In this document: piece by piece, positions 19,281 to 28,540 of the stretch
How the letters are laid out: the number at the start of each line of letters is the position of its first letter
How positions within the stretch are numbered: position 1 is the first letter of the stretch
Source of the DNA: Vulcanimicrobiota bacterium
GTDB taxonomy: Bacteria > Vulcanimicrobiota > Vulcanimicrobiia > Vulcanimicrobiales > Vulcanimicrobiaceae
Assembly: GCA_963820825.1 (NCBI GenBank)
Contig: CAWGBN010000002.1
Location: 256,001 to 320,000, forward strand
Reading direction: 5' to 3'
DNA length: 64,000 bases
The notes under the pieces: model-generated
What the model was told of the DNA's origin: nothing
The model's input: only the letters and a program-made list of their open reading frames with translations
Databases searched by the model: none
Translations under genes and position numbers: made by a program

Positions 19281-20549
19281 CTACTTGGTTATCATCGTCC
19301 AGTGATACAGCTGTGCGGAAACGCCATAGTGTAGTCGATTGCAGGTTAAATCTCCCTGATTTAATGGTTGACCGTCATTCCCGCTGAGATTTATAAAACT
19401 AGTACCGTTGTGCGTTATTTCAAGATCGGTTGATTCAAAGAATGCTGGAAGTAAGTTGCAATAGTCCGACCATGTTCCATCCTTAACCGCGTGTTCTTCG
19501 AAGAAATCCCAGCCCGTATTGCCCATTGTGGTCAAGGTTTGACCGGACGACCGGTACTTCTCGTCCCAACGTCCGCTCTGGTAATTATATAATTTTGCAA
19601 CCCAGATATTTCCGCCAGGCAAATGCGTCGTTTGTACGGTGTATTCCCCGATGCCCGAACCAAAGTCACGCACGTATTGGCTTATAAACTCGGCATTTAC
19701 TATGAGCGGTACCGCCGGATTATTTACCATCGCGTTGCACCAATCCCAAAACCAAACCTGCGCAGGACCGCTGCTATATGCCGTAACGACTTCAATACAA
19801 GCTCCGTCTGGAGCGAGCATTGTCGGAGCATACAGGTAGCTACCAGAGTCGGCATCAAACCGCAGCGCCGGGTTTACGCTCTGGTTTGCATACGCCGCTT
19901 TGATCGCATTCGAAGCGCCCATAAAGAACCCGCGACCTGCATAAACTCGGAGCGGCGTGCCCGCGGGAGCGGGCAGCGATTTGCTATGGAGGAACAGTAG
20001 CCGCTGTTTGGACGGATCCTTCACGGATAATACGGTTGCGGGCGCAGTTATCGGTAGCCCCTTTTTTTCCTCATGCATAGCAGCGGAAACTTCTCTGAAG
20101 CTTGTGGCTGCGGTGCTTAGTGCCAGCGACGGCGACATGGTTGCCGCCGTCGAGGTTGCGGGGCTGGAGGAGCTTGTCGCGTTTCCCGATGGGGTGCCCG
20201 TCGCATTTGCCGACGGGGCAATCGTCGGGGCGGCGCCGCTCGATAACGAACTTGGTGATACCGAACTACCTACCGAAGCACCACCTAATGGCGAACTTGT
20301 TGCAAAGGGCACGTAGTCCTTGTACTCTGTCACGAAAGTCGCGCGAACTTGGCTCGGCGGTGGCAGCGGTTGCGGCGCTACTTGGGCGACCTCCTCTGGG
20401 GGCGCAGGCGTAGCCTTTATCAAGACAACCGTCGGAGCTGGCGCAGGCTTTACGTTCCCGCCCCTGCAACCAGACAGCAGTACGAGGATACTCACGCTCG
20501 CGGTAAGCATCCCAAACCTTGAGATTCGAGCAGTGTGCATGAGAGCCAT
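19281..20549 (-). CDS. hypothetical lipoprotein with an S/T/P-rich linker and an aromatic C-terminal domain
   Basis: Lipobox LSGC; 422-aa intact ORF; C-terminal YAPTM..GACIEVVTAY..VWFWDWC. Confidence 0.75.
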   Translation of the reverse strand: MALMHTARISRFGMLTASVSILVLLSGCRGGNVKPAPAPTVVLIKATPAPPEEVAQVAPQPLPPPSQVRATFVTEYKDYVPFATSSPLGGASVGSSVSPSSLSSGAAPTIAPSANATGTPSGNATSSSSPATSTAATMSPSLALSTAATSFREVSAAMHEEKKGLPITAPATVLSVKDPSKQRLLFLHSKSLPAPAGTPLRVYAGRGFFMGASNAIKAAYANQSVNPALRFDADSGSYLYAPTMLAPDGACIEVVTAYSSGPAQVWFWDWCNAMVNNPAVPLIVNAEFISQYVRDFGSGIGEYTVQTTHLPGGNIWVAKLYNYQSGRWDEKYRSSGQTLTTMGNTGWDFFEEHAVKDGTWSDYCNLLPAFFESTDLEITHNGTSFINLSGNDGQPLNQGDLTCNRLHYGVSAQLYHWTMITK

Positions 20550-20817
20550 TGCGACGTGCCTCCATCGGTTGAAGATGCCGAGGCGCCAAGCCGCCCCGCA
20601 TCACGGTAAGACTAGCCACTCAGCTAGCACGTACTAGCTAGCTGGTGCGGTTTCCTATTGAACTGCAGTCAGGGTTGCCATCAGCGCACCAAAGCCGGTG
20701 CCGTGCCTAACCGTAAACGGTCGAAGACCTCTGTCCAGTCGATCGCCTGGTTTTGCGTGGACAGTCTCCTCCTTTTAATTTGAGCGGTACGAGTAATTAG
20801 AGTGGTACAAGGCTCGC

Positions 20818-22467
20818 TTAACAGTTCGGCGGAACGGTAAGAATCGTCATGTCACTTTTCATGGCGTCTTGCGCATTCTTATACGCCGCGGGATCGGAAT
20901 CGATATTTCGTATTAGAATTTGCCCCGGGTCAATGCTGGTAAAGTTGGCGGTGCTCGGATCGGGTGTCGGAATCGTTATTAGCGACGTCGTGGGCGGCGG
21001 AGTGGCAGTTGGGCTCCTACCTAGTGCGGATGCATCGCGTGGATCATAGGGCCCACGTCGTTCGGCCCATAGCTGAATGTCGCTAAATGTCGGCATCGTA
21101 ACATGTTTGCTCCAGTAGCATGCCTCGCGCTGAATGTGCGCATTTTCAAATGCCTCTTCCACGGAACTAACGTCACTGAGACACTTGATGCCTGACGTAA
21201 CACCCGTAACGCCCGAGCAATCCGACGCGATGGCCCCGATCGTCGAAAGCGTTCCCTGAAAACCGCTGGGTGCTGGGGCCGGCGGGGGAGGTGGGGTTGG
21301 AAGGCTGTCGATGAACTGGATAGCAGCGGTCGCCAGGAAGAGATTCCTGACGTAGTCGTCCGCCACATAGGTGCCTACATTTTCATTGGTCACTTGGGCC
21401 AATAGACTTGGCGAAGTCGACAAGTATGAGGCCAGGTCTCGCGAGTCTATTTGCGTTTGCGCGTTGAACGCCAGAGTTTCGGCATCTGTTGTGCTTAAAG
21501 GTGATGGCGTTGCAGTAGCCGTCGGGCTCGTGGCGCCGGTGACTTGCCCGCTGGACAACAGTTTGTTCGCTGCAGCAATATCGCCTTGATAGTCAGCTAG
21601 AACATCATTAAATAGATCGCTGCACGTGGGCTTAGAGGGCGAAACAGAGGGGCTCGGTGACGGCGCCGAGCTTGGCGAAGCTGACGGTGCAGCTGAATGC
21701 GCTGTCTTAGCCTTAGTGGTTTTTGTTGAGCTACCGCTGCCTTGTTGGCTGCTCTGATGGCGTCCGCGTTGAGTTGGATTTGGCGATGCTAGGTAGCCAT
21801 CTAACTGGTAAGCGTCGTCGAACCCTAGGGGAGCGACGCCAACTTCGGAGCCACCGACATCGCTTACCGAGTGCATAGAAACGTAGACTACGTCGCTATA
21901 TCCAGTTAGAGAAGCGACGGAATCAGGGATCGGAGGCGTCTTGTTTTTTTTTGATTTATCTGAAGCGCTGTTATTCTTTTTATTGCTTGCCGAACTACTT
22001 GCTGAAGGTGTGGGAGATGCAGTCCCCGATGGTGACGAACTAGGACTGGCCGTTGCGGGTGTAACGAGCGCCGTATTCCAACAGCTGCGCAATGTTTCGA
22101 ATTTGCTGCGCCATTTCATCTCTGCCGCGGGGTTCTTGACGATCGTTATCTCGTATGCAATATCTGCCATGACAATCCCGCGCATCGCCTGAAGACTGAG
22201 CTGGTGAGGGTCGGGCGATGCTCCTGGACTTGAAGTCCCGAACAGCGTGAGGTCCATTACCGTTTCGCCCTGCTTTACGCTCCCTTTTGAGCGAAGCATT
22301 GCGGACTCGTACTTCAGGAAGAATCCAATTGCGGCCGCGCCGATCGCACTGATGATGGCAACGGTCCACGCATGACCATCCCAGGTCCAGGCATTGGCGC
22401 GCCTGGGTGGAGAGAGAGTAGCAACCAGTCCGGCCAGAGCAATGAGGGCGAGGAAGCGTCGCAGCAT
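20818..22467 (-). CDS. secreted hypothetical protein (549 aa, low-complexity linkers)
   Basis: SD GGAGG upstream of ATG; signal peptide ending ANA; intact long ORF. Confidence 0.8.
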   Translation of the reverse strand: MLRRFLALIALAGLVATLSPPRRANAWTWDGHAWTVAIISAIGAAAIGFFLKYESAMLRSKGSVKQGETVMDLTLFGTSSPGASPDPHQLSLQAMRGIVMADIAYEITIVKNPAAEMKWRSKFETLRSCWNTALVTPATASPSSSPSGTASPTPSASSSASNKKNNSASDKSKKNKTPPIPDSVASLTGYSDVVYVSMHSVSDVGGSEVGVAPLGFDDAYQLDGYLASPNPTQRGRHQSSQQGSGSSTKTTKAKTAHSAAPSASPSSAPSPSPSVSPSKPTCSDLFNDVLADYQGDIAAANKLLSSGQVTGATSPTATATPSPLSTTDAETLAFNAQTQIDSRDLASYLSTSPSLLAQVTNENVGTYVADDYVRNLFLATAAIQFIDSLPTPPPPPAPAPSGFQGTLSTIGAIASDCSGVTGVTSGIKCLSDVSSVEEAFENAHIQREACYWSKHVTMPTFSDIQLWAERRGPYDPRDASALGRSPTATPPPTTSLITIPTPDPSTANFTSIDPGQILIRNIDSDPAAYKNAQDAMKSDMTILTVPPNC

Positions 22468-22878
22468 TTAACCTCCCACGGAATAAATCACCCTGCAAAC
22501 ACCAAGCTGCCGCTGACGACGCCCGCAAGCCCCTTCTCGCAGGGAAGAATGAGCATGACAGCTTGCTTTGGACTGGCTATTCCGGCTAGCCCATTTGAAG
22601 CCTCTTGCTGAGCCTTCCCCGTGCGGGCGGTGCGGGGCGCCAAAAGCGCTCAACGGCAAGCCGCGGTAGGCGGAGCCGTTCGGGGGCCTGGCGTTGGTCC
22701 GACCAAACTGCGACAAACCTCCACGACACGGATACCCGAATCATTGCCGCGGTGCCACGACGATGCGCTCTACGGAGCCCGGTGCGGTCCTCTGCTGAGG
22801 GCCCAATGCCTGGCGCGAAAGTGTGACTCCGCTGGCCTTAGGGCCACCCCGCTTTCCAGCCAGATAGTACAGGCTAAG

Positions 22879-24432
22879 TTAATGGCCGACGCCGGATAAA
22901 TGCCCGCGCGCCGCCGCTTCCGCAACTAACGCCGCACGATTGTTTACACCATAGGCTCGGAATACGGCCTTCAGATGATTCCTAACCGTATGCTGGCTTA
23001 GACCAAGTTCAGAAGCAATTTCGGCAGTAGTCATCTTGCGGCAGAGCATGCCGAAGACTTTACTCTGCATGGGCGGCAACTTAACGGGTGGATTCGACGC
23101 CGCCGACGCCCGATCGCGAAGCTCGCGGGCGAGCCACGATTGGGGGAACGCCTCGAGCTTGTCCTCGGCGAGGTGGCGCCAGCGCTCCTTCTTCGTCACT
23201 TCAAATAACCTGATCGCCGTACGCGCGGCACGCCAATCGAAGCCGATCCGGTCGAAAATAACCCACGCAGCGCGCAAGACCTCTTCAGCGCCGGCGCCTT
23301 TGCCGGACATCCGAACGACGCCCTCGGTGTACGCGGCATAGGCTTCGAGGCGATGGTCGAAGGCGAAAAGATGCAGCGGCGAGCGGATCCGGTCGAGTCC
23401 TTTATACCGCGCGAGATAGTACCGCCCTCGCTCCGGGTCGATCTCGACCGTGGCTCTGGCGAGGAGGAGCAAAGCCAGTCGCTCCTCGCCGGCCAAGGCG
23501 TTCCAATCGATTCGCTCGGCGACGTTCTCGGCCTGAGCGATTTCGTCGAGTGCCCAGTTCTGCTCCCCGACGATGCGCGCGAAGTACGCGCGATCCAGCA
23601 ATAGGATTACCCTGAAGGCGTCGCTAGGGATCCGGCGCTCCGCGGCGCGCAGATACCGAAAGCATCCCAGCATATCGCCGCGCAACGCGCACGACCAACC
23701 GACGGTGACGAGCGCCTGGAATCGCTGCGTCGTAAAGTCTTCCGGCCACTCGATGGGCTGATCCACCTCGCTTCGCGCTAGCGCTACGGCTTCGTCGAAG
23801 GCAAGTTCGCGTCCGAGCAGCGCGAGGTTTTGAACGGCGTGAAACCACTCTTCACGATACTGCTCGCGGTGTTTTCCGATCAAACCGATCGCCTTAATTA
23901 ACGATTGCGCCGCCTCACGATAGCGCTCTTCATGGCAGTGGATGAACGAACGCAGCAGCTCGTTGGAAACTTTTGTCGCGTGCGACTTCTCGCGAGCCAT
24001 TTCGGCCGTAAGGCGCCATGCTTCATCGGTACGGCCCTCGAGCATCTGACGTCGGGCGATGTGGTAGGTGAGTTGGGCCCGATCGGCTGCCGAAGACAGC
24101 GTGCGCTCCGCTTGAGCGAAGTGCTCGTCGGCGCGCTCAAAATCATGCATTCGCGAGTAGCCGACGCCGAGGAGCATCGCCCACTTCCCGCGCTGGCCGG
24201 CGGGGCGCCCCTTCGGAGGACGCCGGATGAGAAACGCTACGGCGCGGTTTTCGTCGTGCTTGAGCAGAATTCGGGCTCGTAGCAGGTCGTCTTCATAGGT
24301 CGTGGCCGCGCCATCCGAAACGGCGGCGTCGTAGGCATCTCCTGCAGCGAGGAATTCGGCATTGGCGTAGTGACTGAGCATCGCATCGCGCCACTCCCGC
24401 ACCCCAGCTTGCTTCTTTGGCATAGCCGTCAT
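22879..24432 (-). CDS. TPR-like helical-repeat protein with a C-terminal LuxR-type HTH (transcription regulator)
   Basis: C-terminal TTAEIASELGLSQHTVRNHLKAVFRAYGVNNRAALV; helical TPR-like body (e.g. LLGVGYSRMHDFERADEHFAQA); no receiver domain or Walker A. Start ATG 24432 or 24423. Confidence 0.85.
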   Translation of the reverse strand: MTAMPKKQAGVREWRDAMLSHYANAEFLAAGDAYDAAVSDGAATTYEDDLLRARILLKHDENRAVAFLIRRPPKGRPAGQRGKWAMLLGVGYSRMHDFERADEHFAQAERTLSSAADRAQLTYHIARRQMLEGRTDEAWRLTAEMAREKSHATKVSNELLRSFIHCHEERYREAAQSLIKAIGLIGKHREQYREEWFHAVQNLALLGRELAFDEAVALARSEVDQPIEWPEDFTTQRFQALVTVGWSCALRGDMLGCFRYLRAAERRIPSDAFRVILLLDRAYFARIVGEQNWALDEIAQAENVAERIDWNALAGEERLALLLLARATVEIDPERGRYYLARYKGLDRIRSPLHLFAFDHRLEAYAAYTEGVVRMSGKGAGAEEVLRAAWVIFDRIGFDWRAARTAIRLFEVTKKERWRHLAEDKLEAFPQSWLARELRDRASAASNPPVKLPPMQSKVFGMLCRKMTTAEIASELGLSQHTVRNHLKAVFRAYGVNNRAALVAEAAARGHLSGVGH

Positions 24433-24478
24433 GATTAGGCGGCGGGGGGCAAGCCCCCGCCGCCGCCTCGATTTGCCG

Positions 24479-24679
24479 CTAGTGGCCTCCTCCTCCGCCG
24501 GTTCCCTCTCCCGGCATCGTGCCACCGCCTCCGTCGGTTGGGCCGGGCATCGTTCCGCCGGCGCCGTCCATCGGTCCGGCGATTGCGCCGCCGGCCGCGT
24601 GAATCGAAGCGCCGGAACCTCCGGAGAATCCGGTTAAGAATCCAAATAGCAGTGCGAGCCCGTGAAGAAACAGGAACAT
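24479..24679 (-). CDS. 66-aa putative exported Gly-rich peptide with a repeated P-x-DG-x-GGTMPG core
   Basis: SD AAAGGA 9 nt before ATG; MFLFLHGLALLFGFLTGF hydrophobic leader; GPMDGAGGTMP / GPTDGGGGTMP tandem repeat. Confidence 0.72.
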   Translation of the reverse strand: MFLFLHGLALLFGFLTGFSGGSGASIHAAGGAIAGPMDGAGGTMPGPTDGGGGTMPGEGTGGGGGH

Positions 24680-24721
24680 CGGGACTGTCCTTTCTGCCGC
24701 ACAAGCCACGGCAAGTACCAA

Positions 24722-24733
24722 TGAGCTAGCTCA
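24722..24733. promoter_or_regulatory. perfect 12-bp palindrome TGAGCTAGCTCA, candidate operator
   Basis: About 43 nt upstream of the peptide ATG; the AGCTAGCT core recurs at 20636-20643. Confidence 0.4.
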
Positions 24734-24818
24734 ATCGGCCAGCTTACTTGGATTATCGGACAGTTTAGGGGGCGGTCAATAGGGACAGGGGGTTACTTCG
24801 TCGCTTTCTTGAGCGTTC

Positions 24819-24895
24819 GTCCATCGACTGCGGCGTTGCGCGCCTGCGCTCAGGATGACAAAGTGGGGGCGCTTCGCTCAGGATGACAAGGTGGG
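24819..24895 (-). repeat. REP-like element plus a partial tandem copy
   Basis: Reverse complement of 24819-24860 is TGTCATCCTGAGCGCAG-hairpin-GCAGTCGATGGAC; CGCTCAGGATGACAA(A/G)GTGGG occurs at 24847 and 24875. Confidence 0.75.
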
Positions 24896-26137
24896 CGTCA
24901 GTTTGCGGGCGAGCAGCGTCAGAACGCGGGGCCAAGCGTAGCGTTTCGCCGTTGCTGCGCCGCCGTCGCGGATCGCCGAAGCGAGTTTTCGGTTAGCGAT
25001 CAGTTCCGACAAATATATCGCAAGCTCGTGCGGATCGGCGGTGTCGCAGACGATCGCGTTGTCGAAGGGCTGCACGTAATCTTCGCCGGTCGAGCCGGTC
25101 ACGGCGATGCCGCCGGCGGCCATCACCTCGAGTCCGACGAGCCCAAAGGGTTCGCGTCCGCTGTTGGCCAGCACGCCGTCGGCGATGCAGTAGAGCGCGA
25201 GGAGCGCCTCCTCCGGTACGAAGCTGCGGACGTTGAGCACGTTGCCGGATGCCGATGCGATCGCGGCGATTGCATCGCGCGGATCGCGCGAGGCAAGCGC
25301 GAGATCCCGCACGTCCAACCCAAGATCGCGCGCGTGCGCAAAGATCGCGTCGCCGTAGGCTTCGCGACCACCTCGCACCACCAGCGCCGCATCCTGATGC
25401 TCGGCCGCAATCGCGGCAAAGGCCTCGATCGCCTGCATCCAGCGCTTCTCTTCTTCGAAACGCGCGACTTTGACGTAGAGCGGGCGGCGCTGCCGCCACA
25501 CCTTCTCCGCGAATCGCACCAGTTTCTTCGGCGCGCCGTCGAGCAGTCGCTGCGGAATGCCGTTCGGAATGACGAGCGATTCGACGCCGCGTAGTTGCAG
25601 CTCGAACTTCATATAGCGGCTGACCGTCGTGATCTGCGCGGCGCGCGCGAGCGCATCCCAGTCGATCGTATCGAAGCCGTAGGTGTTGTTCGCGTTCCAC
25701 GTCAGAACCGCGCGATCGCGCAGGCCGCGCTCGCGCAACCGCGCGTCGAGCGCGATCGCGGCCGGGGCGGTCTGCCAATCTTCGGCGATGACCAGCACCG
25801 CTTCGCCGCGCGCGGCTGCCGGCTCGACGATCGTCTCGACGACAAACGGCGGCACGCTAGCCGTAAAGTCATTCATCTTCGCGATCTCGCCATCGTAGAC
25901 GCTGCCGGGGTAGTAGGCCGAAATCCACTGGCACCAACGGCGATATTCGAGATTCGGCGAGAGCCGCTCGACCGGCGCGCTCGTCGGATCGCCGACGAAG
26001 AGCAGGGTCGTGCAAACGCCCGCTTGAGCGAGCGCGCCGCTGAGCTCGGTAACTCGGGTGCCGAGTCCACCGACCATCGAGTACCGGTCGGGTCCTTCGA
26101 ACGAGAGCAACACCGCATTGCGCGGCAATGGAGTCAT
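24878..26137 (-). CDS. glycosyltransferase family 4
   Basis: VGGLG, IPNGI, ARFEEEKR, EPFGLVGLEVMAAG motifs. Confidence 0.88.
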   Translation of the reverse strand: MTPLPRNAVLLSFEGPDRYSMVGGLGTRVTELSGALAQAGVCTTLLFVGDPTSAPVERLSPNLEYRRWCQWISAYYPGSVYDGEIAKMNDFTASVPPFVVETIVEPAAARGEAVLVIAEDWQTAPAAIALDARLRERGLRDRAVLTWNANNTYGFDTIDWDALARAAQITTVSRYMKFELQLRGVESLVIPNGIPQRLLDGAPKKLVRFAEKVWRQRRPLYVKVARFEEEKRWMQAIEAFAAIAAEHQDAALVVRGGREAYGDAIFAHARDLGLDVRDLALASRDPRDAIAAIASASGNVLNVRSFVPEEALLALYCIADGVLANSGREPFGLVGLEVMAAGGIAVTGSTGEDYVQPFDNAIVCDTADPHELAIYLSELIANRKLASAIRDGGAATAKRYAWPRVLTLLARKLTPTLSS

Positions 26138-26235
26138 CCGCCCGCTCTTTGCCGAATCGAACCGGTGAATCCCGCAGTTCGACGCGAGCGTGCGATTGGA
26201 GCGCAAAAGTACCGCCGATTAAGGGTAAGACTGCA

Positions 26236-26868
26236 ATGATGCACGTTCCAAAGGGCGCCATGGCCGGCGGCGCGTCGTTCGTATTCTTCGCGCTGGCATC
26301 GCCGGTCGCGGGCAGCACGGGATCTACGGCCGCCTCACCTCCCCAAGAGAGCGCTCCTCCCCCGGGCTACACCTTCCGGCTCGACGTCGCCATGGCGATG
26401 CGCCACTTTCCCTGGCTTCACTTCCACCTCGAAGGCGCCGGCGTCTACGATCCGGGCGAGAGCTACGTCGTGCACTTCACGTCGGTTCCGTGGTTTGCTC
26501 CGCGAAAGCAGCACGATGCCGACCTTTCGATGCTCGATCCGTGGATGTGGCCGAAGCATTATACGTTTCAAGAGGTCGGTGAAGCCAACGGCAACCGGCT
26601 CTTCGAACTGCACGCAATCAACGACCCGACGCTGCGCAGCGCAACTGTCGCGATCGGTCCTCGCGGGAAGGCGCGCCAAGTCGATGCGAGCTACACCGAC
26701 GGCACGCACATCGAAACCCGCGTAACCTCAAGCGACGTCGACGGCTTCTTTCTGCCCGCGACCATAAGCGCCGATATCGACGAGCCGCATATGGCGCTGT
26801 CGGCCAACGCAGACTTCACGAATTATGCGTTCGGTAACGCGCCGGCGCCCAATAGCCCATTACGGTGA
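26236..26868 (+). CDS. secreted hypothetical protein
   Basis: Hydrophobic N-terminus, beta-rich body; GTGA overlap with the next gene; start uncertain. Confidence 0.7.
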   Translation: MMHVPKGAMAGGASFVFFALASPVAGSTGSTAASPPQESAPPPGYTFRLDVAMAMRHFPWLHFHLEGAGVYDPGESYVVHFTSVPWFAPRKQHDADLSMLDPWMWPKHYTFQEVGEANGNRLFELHAINDPTLRSATVAIGPRGKARQVDASYTDGTHIETRVTSSDVDGFFLPATISADIDEPHMALSANADFTNYAFGNAPAPNSPLR

Positions 26869-27236
26869 GCGAGCTCGCGCAGCGCGCCTGCGTCCCATGC
26901 CGTGGCGGCGTGCCGCCGCTGACCGATGAGCAGATCGCGCCGCTGCTCGCACAACTCGACTCAGGATGGCGCGTCGTCGAACGCAGCGATCCCAAACGCG
27001 GGCCGATCAAGATTCTCACCTGCACGTTTACGTTTCAGAACTTCGCGCGAGCGATGGAGGCGGCGCAGCGAATCGGCGAGACGGCCGAGGAGCAACAGCA
27101 TCATCCCGACCTGCACGTCGCTTGGGGACGGCTCGTCGTCGACGTATGGACGCATAAGATCGGCGGATTGACCGAGAGCGATTTTGTCTTCGCCGCCAAG
27201 TGCGACGCGCTGCTCAAAGAGCGGGCGCAAAACTAA
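26865..27236 (+). CDS. phhB: pterin-4-alpha-carbinolamine dehydratase
   Basis: CVPCRGGVPPL, AEEQQHHPDL, WTHKIGGLTESDFVFAAKCD. Confidence 0.92.
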   Translation: MSELAQRACVPCRGGVPPLTDEQIAPLLAQLDSGWRVVERSDPKRGPIKILTCTFTFQNFARAMEAAQRIGETAEEQQHHPDLHVAWGRLVVDVWTHKIGGLTESDFVFAAKCDALLKERAQN

Positions 27237-27424: not shown

Positions 27425-28540
27425 GTGCTTAAGTGGACGCCGCTTTGGCTTCTCCTCCTGCTCGCCGTGCAGCGGCCAGTCGCCGTGCCGGCGATTCCGC
27501 TCTTCGCGCACCAATACGGGGTAACGTGCGCGAAGTGCCACTCGGTCATTCCGCACCTCAACGAATTCGGCGCCGCTTTCTTGGCATACGGCGAGCGCTT
27601 TCCGGGGATATCGTCAGGTCCGGCATTCCCGCTCTCGGTGAAAGTCAACGCGGTCGACTCGAGCGAGTATCAAGGCGAGGGAACCGACGGCCAGGGGCTT
27701 CCCAAAGCGATCGTCGACGAAGTCGAAGCCTTCACCTCGGCGACGATCGGCTCGCGCGCCAACTTCTTCGTCGAGCAGTACGTCGTCGACGGCGGCGAGC
27801 CCGGGTTGCTGCGCGATGCCTGGATCAACGATCGCGTCAATCCCTGGAACGCGCGGATTCCGGCCTATTTGCAAGGCGGGCAGTTCACGCTGCCGCTCCC
27901 GGTCGATCCCGAGACGTTTCGCGACACCTATCAGGAGTACACGCCGTACGCGCAGACGGTCGGCGCGAATCCGTTCGACTTCTTCGACCCCGCGATGGGC
28001 GCGCGGCTCGGTGTCGGCGATCCGTTGCGCGGTCTGAGCGGGCAACTCTTCGCCGGACCTGGATATACGCGCCAGAGCGGACTTGCCGTCACGGGCGTCG
28101 ACACCGAAGTTTACGCACAAGATGCGATGGGCCCGTTCACGCTCAGTGCCCTTCGCTACGACGGCCTGCGTCCGGTGGCAGGCGGCCCGAACGATCGCTT
28201 CGAGCGCACCGCCATCGGCTTGACCTACGGCCAGTGGTCGCGCTTCTCGAGCGAGTTTGTGTTGATCAACGGCTGGGATGCAAACTGCGCGACTCCGGGA
28301 TTCACCGGCTGCAGGTCGAGCGGCGGCTTCGAGCAACTGCGCTACGCGTTCAACCGCCGGCTCTTCGCCGAAGCGCGTTACGAGGGGACGAACGATCCGA
28401 CGAATGGCTTTACGCGCGACGGCGTGATCCTGCTCGGCTACGGCCCGACCGAAAACACGCGTTTGACGATTGAAGATGTGATCGCGCATTCGCCCCAGAC
28501 GACCAACACGATGAATCTTCAGCTCACTTTCGCCTATTAG
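27425..28540 (+). CDS. monoheme cytochrome c fused to a putative outer-membrane beta-barrel (Cyc2-like N-terminus)
   Basis: Signal peptide, AIPLFAHQYGVTCAKCHSVIPHLNEFG (CxxCH), terminal aromatic QLTFAY. Confidence 0.75.
   Translation: MLKWTPLWLLLLLAVQRPVAVPAIPLFAHQYGVTCAKCHSVIPHLNEFGAAFLAYGERFPGISSGPAFPLSVKVNAVDSSEYQGEGTDGQGLPKAIVDEVEAFTSATIGSRANFFVEQYVVDGGEPGLLRDAWINDRVNPWNARIPAYLQGGQFTLPLPVDPETFRDTYQEYTPYAQTVGANPFDFFDPAMGARLGVGDPLRGLSGQLFAGPGYTRQSGLAVTGVDTEVYAQDAMGPFTLSALRYDGLRPVAGGPNDRFERTAIGLTYGQWSRFSSEFVLINGWDANCATPGFTGCRSSGGFEQLRYAFNRRLFAEARYEGTNDPTNGFTRDGVILLGYGPTENTRLTIEDVIAHSPQTTNTMNLQLTFAY

Follow-up and report, generated by a model that had tools for sequence, protein, structure and literature searches.

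Does a short open reading frame (ORF) lying just upstream of a LuxR-type regulator gene encode a peptide signal for which that regulator is the receptor? The question is raised by a locus in a 64,000-nt stretch of DNA, here called the window (contig CAWGBN010000002.1, positions 256,001 to 320,000 of the forward strand, assembly GCA_963820825.1), from an uncultured soil bacterium (Candidatus Cybelea) of the phylum Vulcanimicrobiota, also known as Eremiobacterota. Both genes are on the minus strand, the small one at 24479..24679 with a predicted 66-aa product and the regulator gene at 22879..24432. The analyzed assembly is 2.98 Mb in size and 85% complete, and the window lies on its contig 2. 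We lean, cautiously, toward the view that this cassette pairs a peptide signal with a cytoplasmic receptor in the manner of the RRNPP systems, here on a MalT-like chassis of tetratricopeptide repeats (TPR) followed by a LuxR helix-turn-helix (HTH); this is a judgment made from sequence, and we set out below what carries it and what else could explain the same locus.

The small gene is a real, conserved coding gene under purifying selection. The same ORF is present upstream of 26 orthologous regulators (53-86% identity), with its Shine-Dalgarno (SD) sequence and start codon conserved across all 26 loci; in the window the SD is GAAAGGA (24688..24694, minus strand), and in the 26 orthologues it precedes the ATG by 7-12 nt. 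Four related loci fall outside this set, two being truncated or split (L013 and L033) and two having a variant start (L019 and L021). Over 16 ungapped leader codons the summed entropy by codon position was 15.2, 7.5 and 24.1 bits, and the pooled ratio of nonsynonymous to synonymous polymorphism (pN/pS) was 0.42 over these codons and 0.22 over the core, the latter value coming from the 18 sequences with D[GS]GG[STN]MP. The other two frames of the same DNA gave pN/pS values of 0.70 and 2.11 and contained many stops. The product, MFLFLHGLALLFGFLTGFSGGSGASIHAAGGAIAGPMDGAGGTMPGPTDGGGGTMPGEGTGGGGGH, is made up of a leader (MFLFLHGLALLFGFL), a Gly-rich linker, two cores and a Gly tail. Core copy 1 (PMDGAGGTMPG, residues 36-46, 24542..24574, minus strand) aligns to the family core P-x-D-G-G-G-[ST]-M-P-G, and copy 2 (PTDGGGGTMPG, residues 47-57, 24509..24541, minus strand) follows it directly. 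Across the orthologues both a leader, MF[LMV]F[LF]HALA, and the core are conserved, and within the core P36, D38, G41, G42, M44 and P45 each show at least 90% conservation or no variation at all. An earlier note, made from the letters of the window alone, had described an ORF with a good SD, a hydrophobic leader, two 11-aa copies and a degenerate Gly-rich tail, co-oriented with the regulator ORF and about 46 nt from it. That description holds in each particular, the two copies being P36-G46 and P47-G57 and the distance from the peptide stop to the ATG at 24432 being 46 nt.

These data bear directly on the simplest alternative, namely that the ORF is a leader whose translation tunes the regulator through a hairpin (attenuation), or else a chance ORF in GC-rich DNA. 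Spurious ORFs are abundant in GC-rich genomes, and a conserved stem-loop does separate the ORF stop from the regulator start (see below). However, selection acts on the amino-acid sequence and in this frame only, leader and core of the product are both conserved, and paralogous genes encode bona fide lipoprotein signal peptides. Moreover, attenuation cannot work at two of the family loci because the peptide gene there is downstream of the regulator gene and convergent with it. We consider this explanation very improbable.

Searches with the peptide itself returned little that is named. A profile built from the 26 orthologous peptides retrieved 69 public protein clusters, among which no Pfam domain was found; those with a name were all called 'hypothetical protein', several from Candidatus Cybelea. 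By exact look-up in the protein collection, neither the 66-aa peptide nor that of a second cassette in the same genome was present with these starts, and an ESM Atlas search with the peptide gave a best score of 0.78, to unnamed Bacteroidota clusters, which is below the usable level. Four familiar motif types were rejected by eye: RTX calcium-binding repeats (the GGxGxD order is not in the peptide), C-terminal sorting signals of the PEP-CTERM or LPXTG type (there is no transmembrane helix or basic tail past the motif), a double-glycine leader (the consensus is not matched) and Met/His copper-binding repeats (Met varies between peptide classes).

What kind of protein is the neighboring regulator? 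It would be 517 aa long from the ATG at 24432 and 514 aa long from the ATG at 24423; since the orthologous regulators begin at the second of these positions (MPKKQ...), the 514-aa form is the more probable. At its C-terminus is a LuxR/GerE HTH (residues ~454-508, 22909..23073, minus strand; Pfam GerE E 7.5e-8, PDB GerE E 5.9e-15), which at residues 456-504 is the sole Pfam family over the cut-off. The rest of the protein, residues ~5-446 (23095..24420, minus strand), was recognized as a TPR superhelical domain, presumed to be the ligand-binding part, by comparison of a profile with the PDB and by fold alignment. The profile, from an alignment of 72 regulator family members (A1), matched consensus TPR proteins at E 1.4e-22. 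Neither Pfam (at E <=0.01) nor NCBIfam revealed a receiver, autoinducer-binding or ATPase family, matches to response regulators were confined to the HTH (residues ~430-510), and the sequence has no signal peptide or transmembrane segment. The NCBIfam match to MalT likewise covered the HTH only (E 0.003, 15.6 bits versus a cut-off of 537). In an AlphaFold2 model of high confidence (predicted local distance difference test score 95.4, predicted template-modeling score 0.89), 27 helices form a TPR superhelix followed by a four-helix LuxR domain, and the DNA-binding domain of phage VqmA fits the HTH with a root-mean-square deviation of 1.2 over 68 residues. The earlier note had seen a helical-repeat protein ending in a LuxR HTH, without receiver, acyl-homoserine lactone (AHL)-binding or ATPase domains, and had called its repeats TPR-like; both statements are borne out, with RapI, a phage Rap, AimR and NprR among the nearest folds and with the start codon probably shifted to give 514 aa.

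The fold does not by itself tell us what is bound. A Foldseek search with the model returned generic TPR proteins, NprR and a phage Rap among them, and structural alignment with VIA-align gave Z scores of 20.5 for the TPR domain of LGN, 20.5 for MalT domain III (1hz4; 342 residues aligned, model residues 71-430), 20.1 for RapI, 19.0 for phi105 Rap with bound peptide, 17.8 for AimR, 16.9 for NprR and 12.7 for PlcR. Long TPR proteins such as LGN and subunits of the APC match the regulator as well as peptide receptors do. Because the top matches are tied and TPR proteins are broadly alike, a peptide and a small-molecule ligand are both compatible with the fold. Mean pairwise identity within the family is 0.345 in the TPR part versus 0.466 in the HTH. 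Co-folding of the TPR part (residues 1-450) with peptide residues 30-66 scored 0.02 against a mark of 0.32, a result obtained without controls that is evidence neither way.

As modeled, the regulator has the architecture of the C-terminal half of MalT, that is sensor plus LuxR HTH, without the NTPase. It shares with MalT and the LAL regulators a TPR-like superhelical sensor placed directly before a C-terminal LuxR HTH and differs from them in having no STAND NTPase and arm domains, being 514-517 aa long with helical repeats from residue ~5-6. MalT senses maltotriose, and we know of no peptide gene paired with it. From this likeness arises a second alternative, in which the exported peptide would be a product under the regulator's control (acting, for example, at the surface, in the periplasm, as an antimicrobial or in metal binding; in effect cargo) and the TPR domain would sense a small molecule or a partner protein. 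In its favor, MalT domain III plus a LuxR HTH is the closest architecture to that of the regulator, and the fold match to this sugar-binding domain equals that to the peptide receptors; we return to this alternative once the family as a whole has been described. Other relatives of the HTH are further removed. AHL receptors of the LuxR type and LuxR solos have the C-terminal GerE/LuxR HTH in common with the regulator, whereas the cassette has no autoinducer-binding domain and no adjacent LuxI-type synthase, its sensing domain being TPR and its candidate signal a gene-encoded peptide. Unlike NarL/FixJ response regulators, the cassette regulator has no receiver domain. TPR_12 plus GerE regulators of ~530-570 aa from Actinomycetota and Acidobacteriota have the same layout as judged by language-model features in the ESM Atlas (scores 0.95-0.96).

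Small peptide ORFs do neighbor the homologues of the regulator, as the earlier note had supposed they would if the two genes form a unit. Ninety-five loci were collected (30 plus 4 from family searches, 1 from the window's own genome and 60 picked from the upper hit list), and three of these (L013, L033 and L077) were dropped, their upstream region being cut by a contig end or their regulator being split, which left 92. By a first set of rules, a leader-bearing, same-strand upstream ORF of 30-130 aa is present at 68 of the 92 loci and also contains an acidic-glycine motif at 55. By a second set with a broader core pattern, an adjoining leader-bearing small ORF with a core is present at 66, and five further pairs recognized by eye (L058, L065, L081, L084 and L098) bring the total to 71 of 92. 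The peptide gene is upstream on the same strand in 69 of these pairs and just downstream and convergent in the other two (L045 and L049). Among 1199 other ORFs of at least 400 aa in the window's own genome, used as a control, 126 (10.5%) meet the first rules and a single one has the motif as well, this one being the family's second cassette. In the genome as a whole 44 small ORFs satisfy the second rules, equivalent to 0.003 expected per 340-nt interval, and just three small ORFs have at least two cores, two of them belonging to the two cassettes.

The second cassette lies outside the window (G000:C2:142534-144500; locus L002 1444-3471), and its regulator is 30% identical to that in the window. 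Its peptide gene, 90 nt upstream of the regulator gene, encodes 121 aa with a signal peptide of the lipoprotein type and with H(L/M)DSVGGGPVP present five times. His/Met-rich spacers separate the units, and aquaporin-like and cyclase-like genes follow downstream.

The precursors vary in form around a recognizable theme. Those of the window type have an uncharged, hydrophobic leader and one to three DGGG[ST]MPG cores, and a related 38-41-aa form combines the leader MALFFAFL with the core IVxPxDSxGGxxGG. In the lipoprotein forms the core is DSGG[GVIA]M[TP]G[DK] at the extreme C-terminus (doubled or tripled in L040 and L044, and in some cases flanked by two Cys), or the variant D[DS]GGxLP, or a five-fold repeat of DSVGGGP or DVGGGGPV units. 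Sister-family lipoproteins (L055-L057) contain 2-3 units ending in PPY, the last of which is the end of the protein (SGGGQPPY, EGSHPPY, ADGTLPPY). Of 66 precursors identified by script, 26 have a lipobox, 28 have at least two cores (with a maximum of five, in L002 and L095), and 47 have their last core within 12 residues of the C-terminus, all traits usual in pheromone propeptides. Short units repeated identically, the last of which ends the protein, are what would be expected if the precursor were cleaved to release one small peptide in several copies. In eight loci (L037, L038, L041, L043, L061, L064, L067 and L071) the core is flanked by two Cys, as in C-P-N-D-S-G-G-I-M-T-G-D-G-S-G-T-C, an arrangement that would allow a disulfide-closed mature peptide.

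The Gly-rich composition and the repeated cores also call to mind a natural-product or bacteriocin precursor, either a multi-core ribosomally synthesized and post-translationally modified peptide or something microcin-like, with the regulator as activator of the pathway; LuxR-family regulators are indeed frequent in biosynthetic clusters. No modifying enzyme, immunity or exporter gene is conserved beside the pair, however, and most paralogue precursors are ordinary lipoproteins, and we think this origin quite improbable, if not as far-fetched as a chance or attenuating ORF.

Peptide type and regulator also go together. The nine peptide labels require 18 changes on a maximum-likelihood tree of 72 regulators, versus a mean of 48.4 after shuffling, none of 200 shuffles being as low, and the window-type peptide class corresponds to a single regulator clade with support of 100. 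The peptide types follow the regulator clades, which shows a stable association, not co-evolution. The cargo alternative leaves unexplained both that the peptide type tracks the receptor clade and that precursors consist of 2-5 identical short units ending at the C-terminus, and adjacency of the two genes is kept across clades sharing <35% identity while all other neighbors change. Cores that are Met/His-rich in some classes, such as that of L002, would suit a metal-binding output, but Met is swapped for Leu, Val or Pro in several classes, and a common metal-binding role is unlikely for that reason. All told, we judge the cargo arrangement unlikely, though clearly the most serious of the alternatives to a signal-receptor pair.

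If the regulator controls its own peptide gene, where might it bind? The peptide gene has a promoter-like sequence, TTGACC-16 nt-GATAAT (24752..24779, minus strand; 10/12 matches in a consensus scan), with ATAAT kept in 26 orthologues. Alignment of the 26 orthologous upstream regions revealed a palindrome, GCTAGCC-N5-GGCTAGC (24725..24743), between the -10 box and the SD. As a narrow pattern with at most one mismatch it is found in 14 of the 26 loci, at -63 to -70 relative to the peptide ATG, and these are 14 of the 15 such sites found in 113,636 nt; by eye, most of the remaining orthologous loci have the variant CTAGCCC-N4-5-GGGCTAG. Paralogues with otherwise unrelated flanks have similar palindromes at -45 to -66. 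At the same threshold the 2.98-Mb genome contains seven sites, of which three are in this 4.2-kb locus: a single site precedes the peptide gene, and two that overlap each other lie 60-90 nt before the neighboring gene for a 422-aa lipoprotein (20611..20642, GCTAGC half-sites). A weaker palindrome with two mismatches (22572..22590) lies ~105 nt upstream of the gene for a 549-aa protein. The hexamer GCTAGC is under-represented ~4.5-fold in the genome (223 found versus 1011 expected from base composition), and its clustered occurrences at 20611-20642, 22585 and 24725 stand out because of this; at a spacing of 8-18 nt the genome has just one exact GCTAGC pair, that at 20623/20637. Our preferred reading of the palindrome is as a candidate operator for the LuxR-type HTH of the family, and a palindrome in the promoter of a signal gene resembles the lux box. 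On the cargo alternative it would show no more than probable control of the peptide gene by some family member. The sister-family loci L055-L057 have another promoter palindrome, TGGCAC-N4-GTGCCA, just upstream of a GGGCTATGAT box.

Between the two genes, a GC-rich stem-loop of 13 pairs follows the peptide stop (24438..24467, minus strand) and is terminator-like without a U tract. A GC stem of 10-13 bp occupies the same position, between peptide stop and regulator start, in 21 of 26 orthologous spacers, compensatory changes are seen at 5 of 10 predicted stem pairs, and folding energies of <=-15 kcal/mol were obtained for 34 of 35 paralogue spacers, a count made without a shuffle control. Directly 3' of the stem and 8 nt before the conserved regulator start is a TAATC box (24433..24437, minus strand), which is invariant in a 21-sequence spacer alignment and is found again in class 2 paralogues; the regulator ATG that follows it has no SD. 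The TAATC box may be the -10 element of a leaderless or short-leader regulator transcript, and the stem suggests a terminator of the peptide transcript, with the regulator transcribed separately.

A signal-receptor cassette of this kind might work as follows. The small gene would be transcribed from its sigma-70-like promoter with the palindromic operator and translated from a strong SD. Its product would be exported via the hydrophobic leader, or in most paralogues via a lipoprotein signal peptide, and cleavage outside the cytoplasm would yield short peptides with the core P-x-D-G-G-G-[ST]-M-P-G, two per precursor in the present case. The peptide would be re-imported, most simply by an oligopeptide ATP-binding cassette (ABC) importer of the host genome, and would bind in the TPR superhelix of the cytoplasmic regulator. 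Binding would alter how the LuxR-type HTH, probably as a dimer, occupies the GCTAGCC-N5-GGCTAGC palindromes, both in the peptide promoter, where it would give feedback, and before two neighboring secreted-protein genes, which together would make a small and variable local regulon. The stem-loop and TAATC box would permit the regulator to be expressed apart from the peptide. The comparisons establish the conservation of both genes, of their pairing and of the palindrome, hairpin and TAATC box; in this scheme we infer that the peptide is exported, processed, taken up again and bound, and in which direction regulation goes. The host genome contains what the route needs, with nine SBP_bac_5 (OppA-type) binding proteins and a signal peptidase II gene; this speaks to the existence of importers only.

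Several points weigh against this scheme. (i) Class 1 leaders, the window's own included, lack both a basic N-region and a clear A-x-A cleavage site, and Sec export of the class 1 peptide is for this reason assumed rather than evident; in a diderm, moreover, a lipoprotein-anchored precursor must be freed and must then cross the outer membrane, and neither an exporter nor a protease gene accompanies the cassette consistently across the orthologous loci. (ii) The palindrome, being downstream of the -10 box, could instead be an RNA hairpin in the 5' untranslated region, and symmetric changes agree with either, so operator and hairpin both fit. Because it is common to paralogues, the palindrome also carries no specificity. 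(iii) The fold of the window's own spacer (76 nt; minimum free energy -37.2 kcal/mol) has a z score of -1.24, and 23 of 200 shuffled sequences folded as well. (iv) At 21 of the 92 loci the regulator has no such peptide beside it, 15 having none and six solely a divergent lipoprotein, as the cargo alternative would readily allow. (v) The core patterns were defined after the peptides had been seen, and the exact pairing figures are flattering for that reason, although the size of the contrast with the controls is independent of it; in addition, the paralogue loci are the top of a hit list and not a random sample, and 28 of the 71 pairs are one orthologue group from one genus. (vi) Label clustering on the regulator tree is not proof of co-evolution, because shared descent alone clusters labels.

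The six divergent lipoproteins (L086, L087, L089, L090, L096 and L097), which are from one clade, were considered as a fifth peptide class and set aside because a Gly-Pro stretch like theirs is widespread among the lipoproteins of this genome: of 255 predicted lipoproteins, 132 have a Gly/Ser stretch and then [LVIM]P no more than 16 residues past the lipobox Cys. This feature, counted without a control region, looks like a lineage-wide linker or sorting feature. One peptide-free regulator clade (L046, L048 and L050) has a conserved ORF of ~150 aa directly upstream (...HGYPRYxTHAIxYxYRV...).

How close does the cassette come to the RRNPP systems? The earlier note had proposed an RRNPP-analogous module, and the analogy stands in the TPR receptor and the adjacent small gene; membership in that family does not, given the domain order and the class of HTH. 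Like the RRNPP or RRNPPA systems (Rap-Phr, NprR-NprX, PlcR-PapR, PrgX, Rgg-SHP and AimR-AimP), the cassette places a cytoplasmic TPR-type receptor beside a gene for a small exported propeptide, here as judged by sequence, with the core near the precursor C-terminus, several paralogous cassettes per genome as with multi-copy Rap-Phr, a variable gene order, and a receptor fold similar to those of RapI, phi105 Rap, AimR and NprR (Z scores of 20.1, 19.0, 17.8 and 16.9, as above). Tandem pheromone copies within propeptides are a known trait of RRNPPA/Rap-Phr systems (PMC11343458). The differences are equally plain. The HTH here is C-terminal and of the LuxR/GerE class, whereas the RRNPP effector part, either the three-helix bundle of Rap or an HTH of the XRE type, is N-terminal; the core, D-x-G-G-x-M-P-G, does not resemble known pheromones; many of the precursors are lipoproteins; and the host, one of the Eremiobacterota, is a diderm. 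No RRNPP receptor was present among the best 60 of 170 PDB sequence matches (E <=1). In the literature consulted, RRNPP systems are described solely in Bacillota and their mobile elements (PMC10075063). The earlier note knew of no described system with this combination, and our searches on RRNPP, LuxR plus TPR regulators, Eremiobacterota quorum sensing and Cybelea likewise found no account of the pairing.

The note had further taken the host to be probably a diderm non-Firmicute, and this is supported. A search with the single regulator protein found five close relatives, in records of Candidatus Cybelea sp. and Candidatus Eremiobacteraeota bacterium, and the nearest ESM Atlas clusters by language-model features were from Vulcanimicrobiota (scores 0.97-0.98). 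The host genome encodes an Omp85/BamA-type protein, from which we take it to be a diderm; in a control, Omp85 was found in 7 of 14 genomes, with no match in Bacillus subtilis, Corynebacterium glutamicum or Lactococcus lactis, and the seven positive organisms are diderms.

Within the phylum most of the regulator family is found in a single bacterial family. Matches at E <=1e-10 were found in 248 of 401 sampled phylum genomes, including 243 of 296 from the window's own bacterial family, 3 of 5 from its sister family, 1 of 30 from a third and 0 of 69 from 18 other families; five of the genomes counted here are flagged as unpublished (G213, G238, G246, G248 and G359), and nothing else in this account depends on them. 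A profile search of 1.84 billion representatives recovered 693 regulator clusters at E <=1e-30. Five closed genomes have 3-8 regulator matches apiece, some of them fragments of broken genes, which corresponds to ~3-6 gene copies apiece, and the window's own genome has two family members. A tblastn search of plasmids found no match, and a scan of viral contigs found no pattern match. Regulators that are split into two adjacent open frames or that have a single in-frame stop were seen in L033 (G388), G203, G144 and G324, and the split regulators suggest that individual cassettes decay frequently. We advance, as a possibility we hold at somewhat less than even confidence, that Eremiobacterota (Baltobacteraceae and a sister family) have a family of peptide pheromone systems of their own that arose independently of RRNPP, with several cassettes per genome, each comprising a multi-copy and often lipoprotein-anchored precursor, a dedicated TPR plus LuxR-HTH receptor, a shared operator and a terminator-insulated receptor gene.

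Around the cassette little else is constant; across the orthologous loci the peptide-regulator pair alone is conserved. On the downstream side, the 549-aa protein (20818..22467, minus strand) is Ser/Pro-rich with an N-terminal signal-like segment and belongs to no Pfam or NCBIfam family, and the 422-aa predicted lipoprotein (19281..20549, minus strand; LLSGC lipobox) is likewise not assigned to a family in Pfam or NCBIfam; each is a possible local target of the regulator. Both genes are absent within 1.5 kb of all orthologous regulators. Homologues of the 422-aa protein are sporadic, occurring in 16 of 251 genomes of the bacterial family, and an AlphaFold2 model of it from six sequences (predicted local distance difference test score 30.7) was unusable. 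On the upstream side is a GT4 glycosyltransferase gene (24878-26206, minus strand; Pfam E 1.8e-17) that is common to the five nearest orthologues, with a C-terminal fragment in a sixth (L010), and beyond it a gene for pterin-4a-carbinolamine dehydratase (26865-27236, plus strand; Pfam E 1.3e-26). A 371-aa ORF further on (27425-28540, plus strand), for which Pfam gave no family at E <=0.01, has a signal-like N-terminus, a CxxCH heme motif (CAKCH) near its start and the C-terminal sequence ...TFAY. Outer-membrane beta-barrels often end in this way, and the ORF may encode a heme-bearing outer-membrane protein.

What would a peptide signal at this locus mean? In the literature consulted, peptide signaling through intracellular TPR receptors has so far been treated as belonging to Bacillota and to their phages and plasmids. 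If true, a conserved analogue with multiple paralogues in an uncultured phylum of diderms would mean that the design has evolved more than once and that gene-encoded peptide quorum sensing with an intracellular receptor exists in a diderm phylum outside Bacillota. It would also suggest that TPR sensor domains of the MalT type can be converted into peptide receptors, and it would mark the many TPR plus LuxR regulators (~530-570 aa) of Actinomycetota and Acidobacteriota as candidates for the same logic. Short, unmodified, gene-encoded ligands paired with receptors and a defined operator would be open to direct study in vitro and usable as orthogonal switches. For the Eremiobacterota themselves, which are widespread in soils and peat, the cassette would provide a first handle on cell-cell communication.

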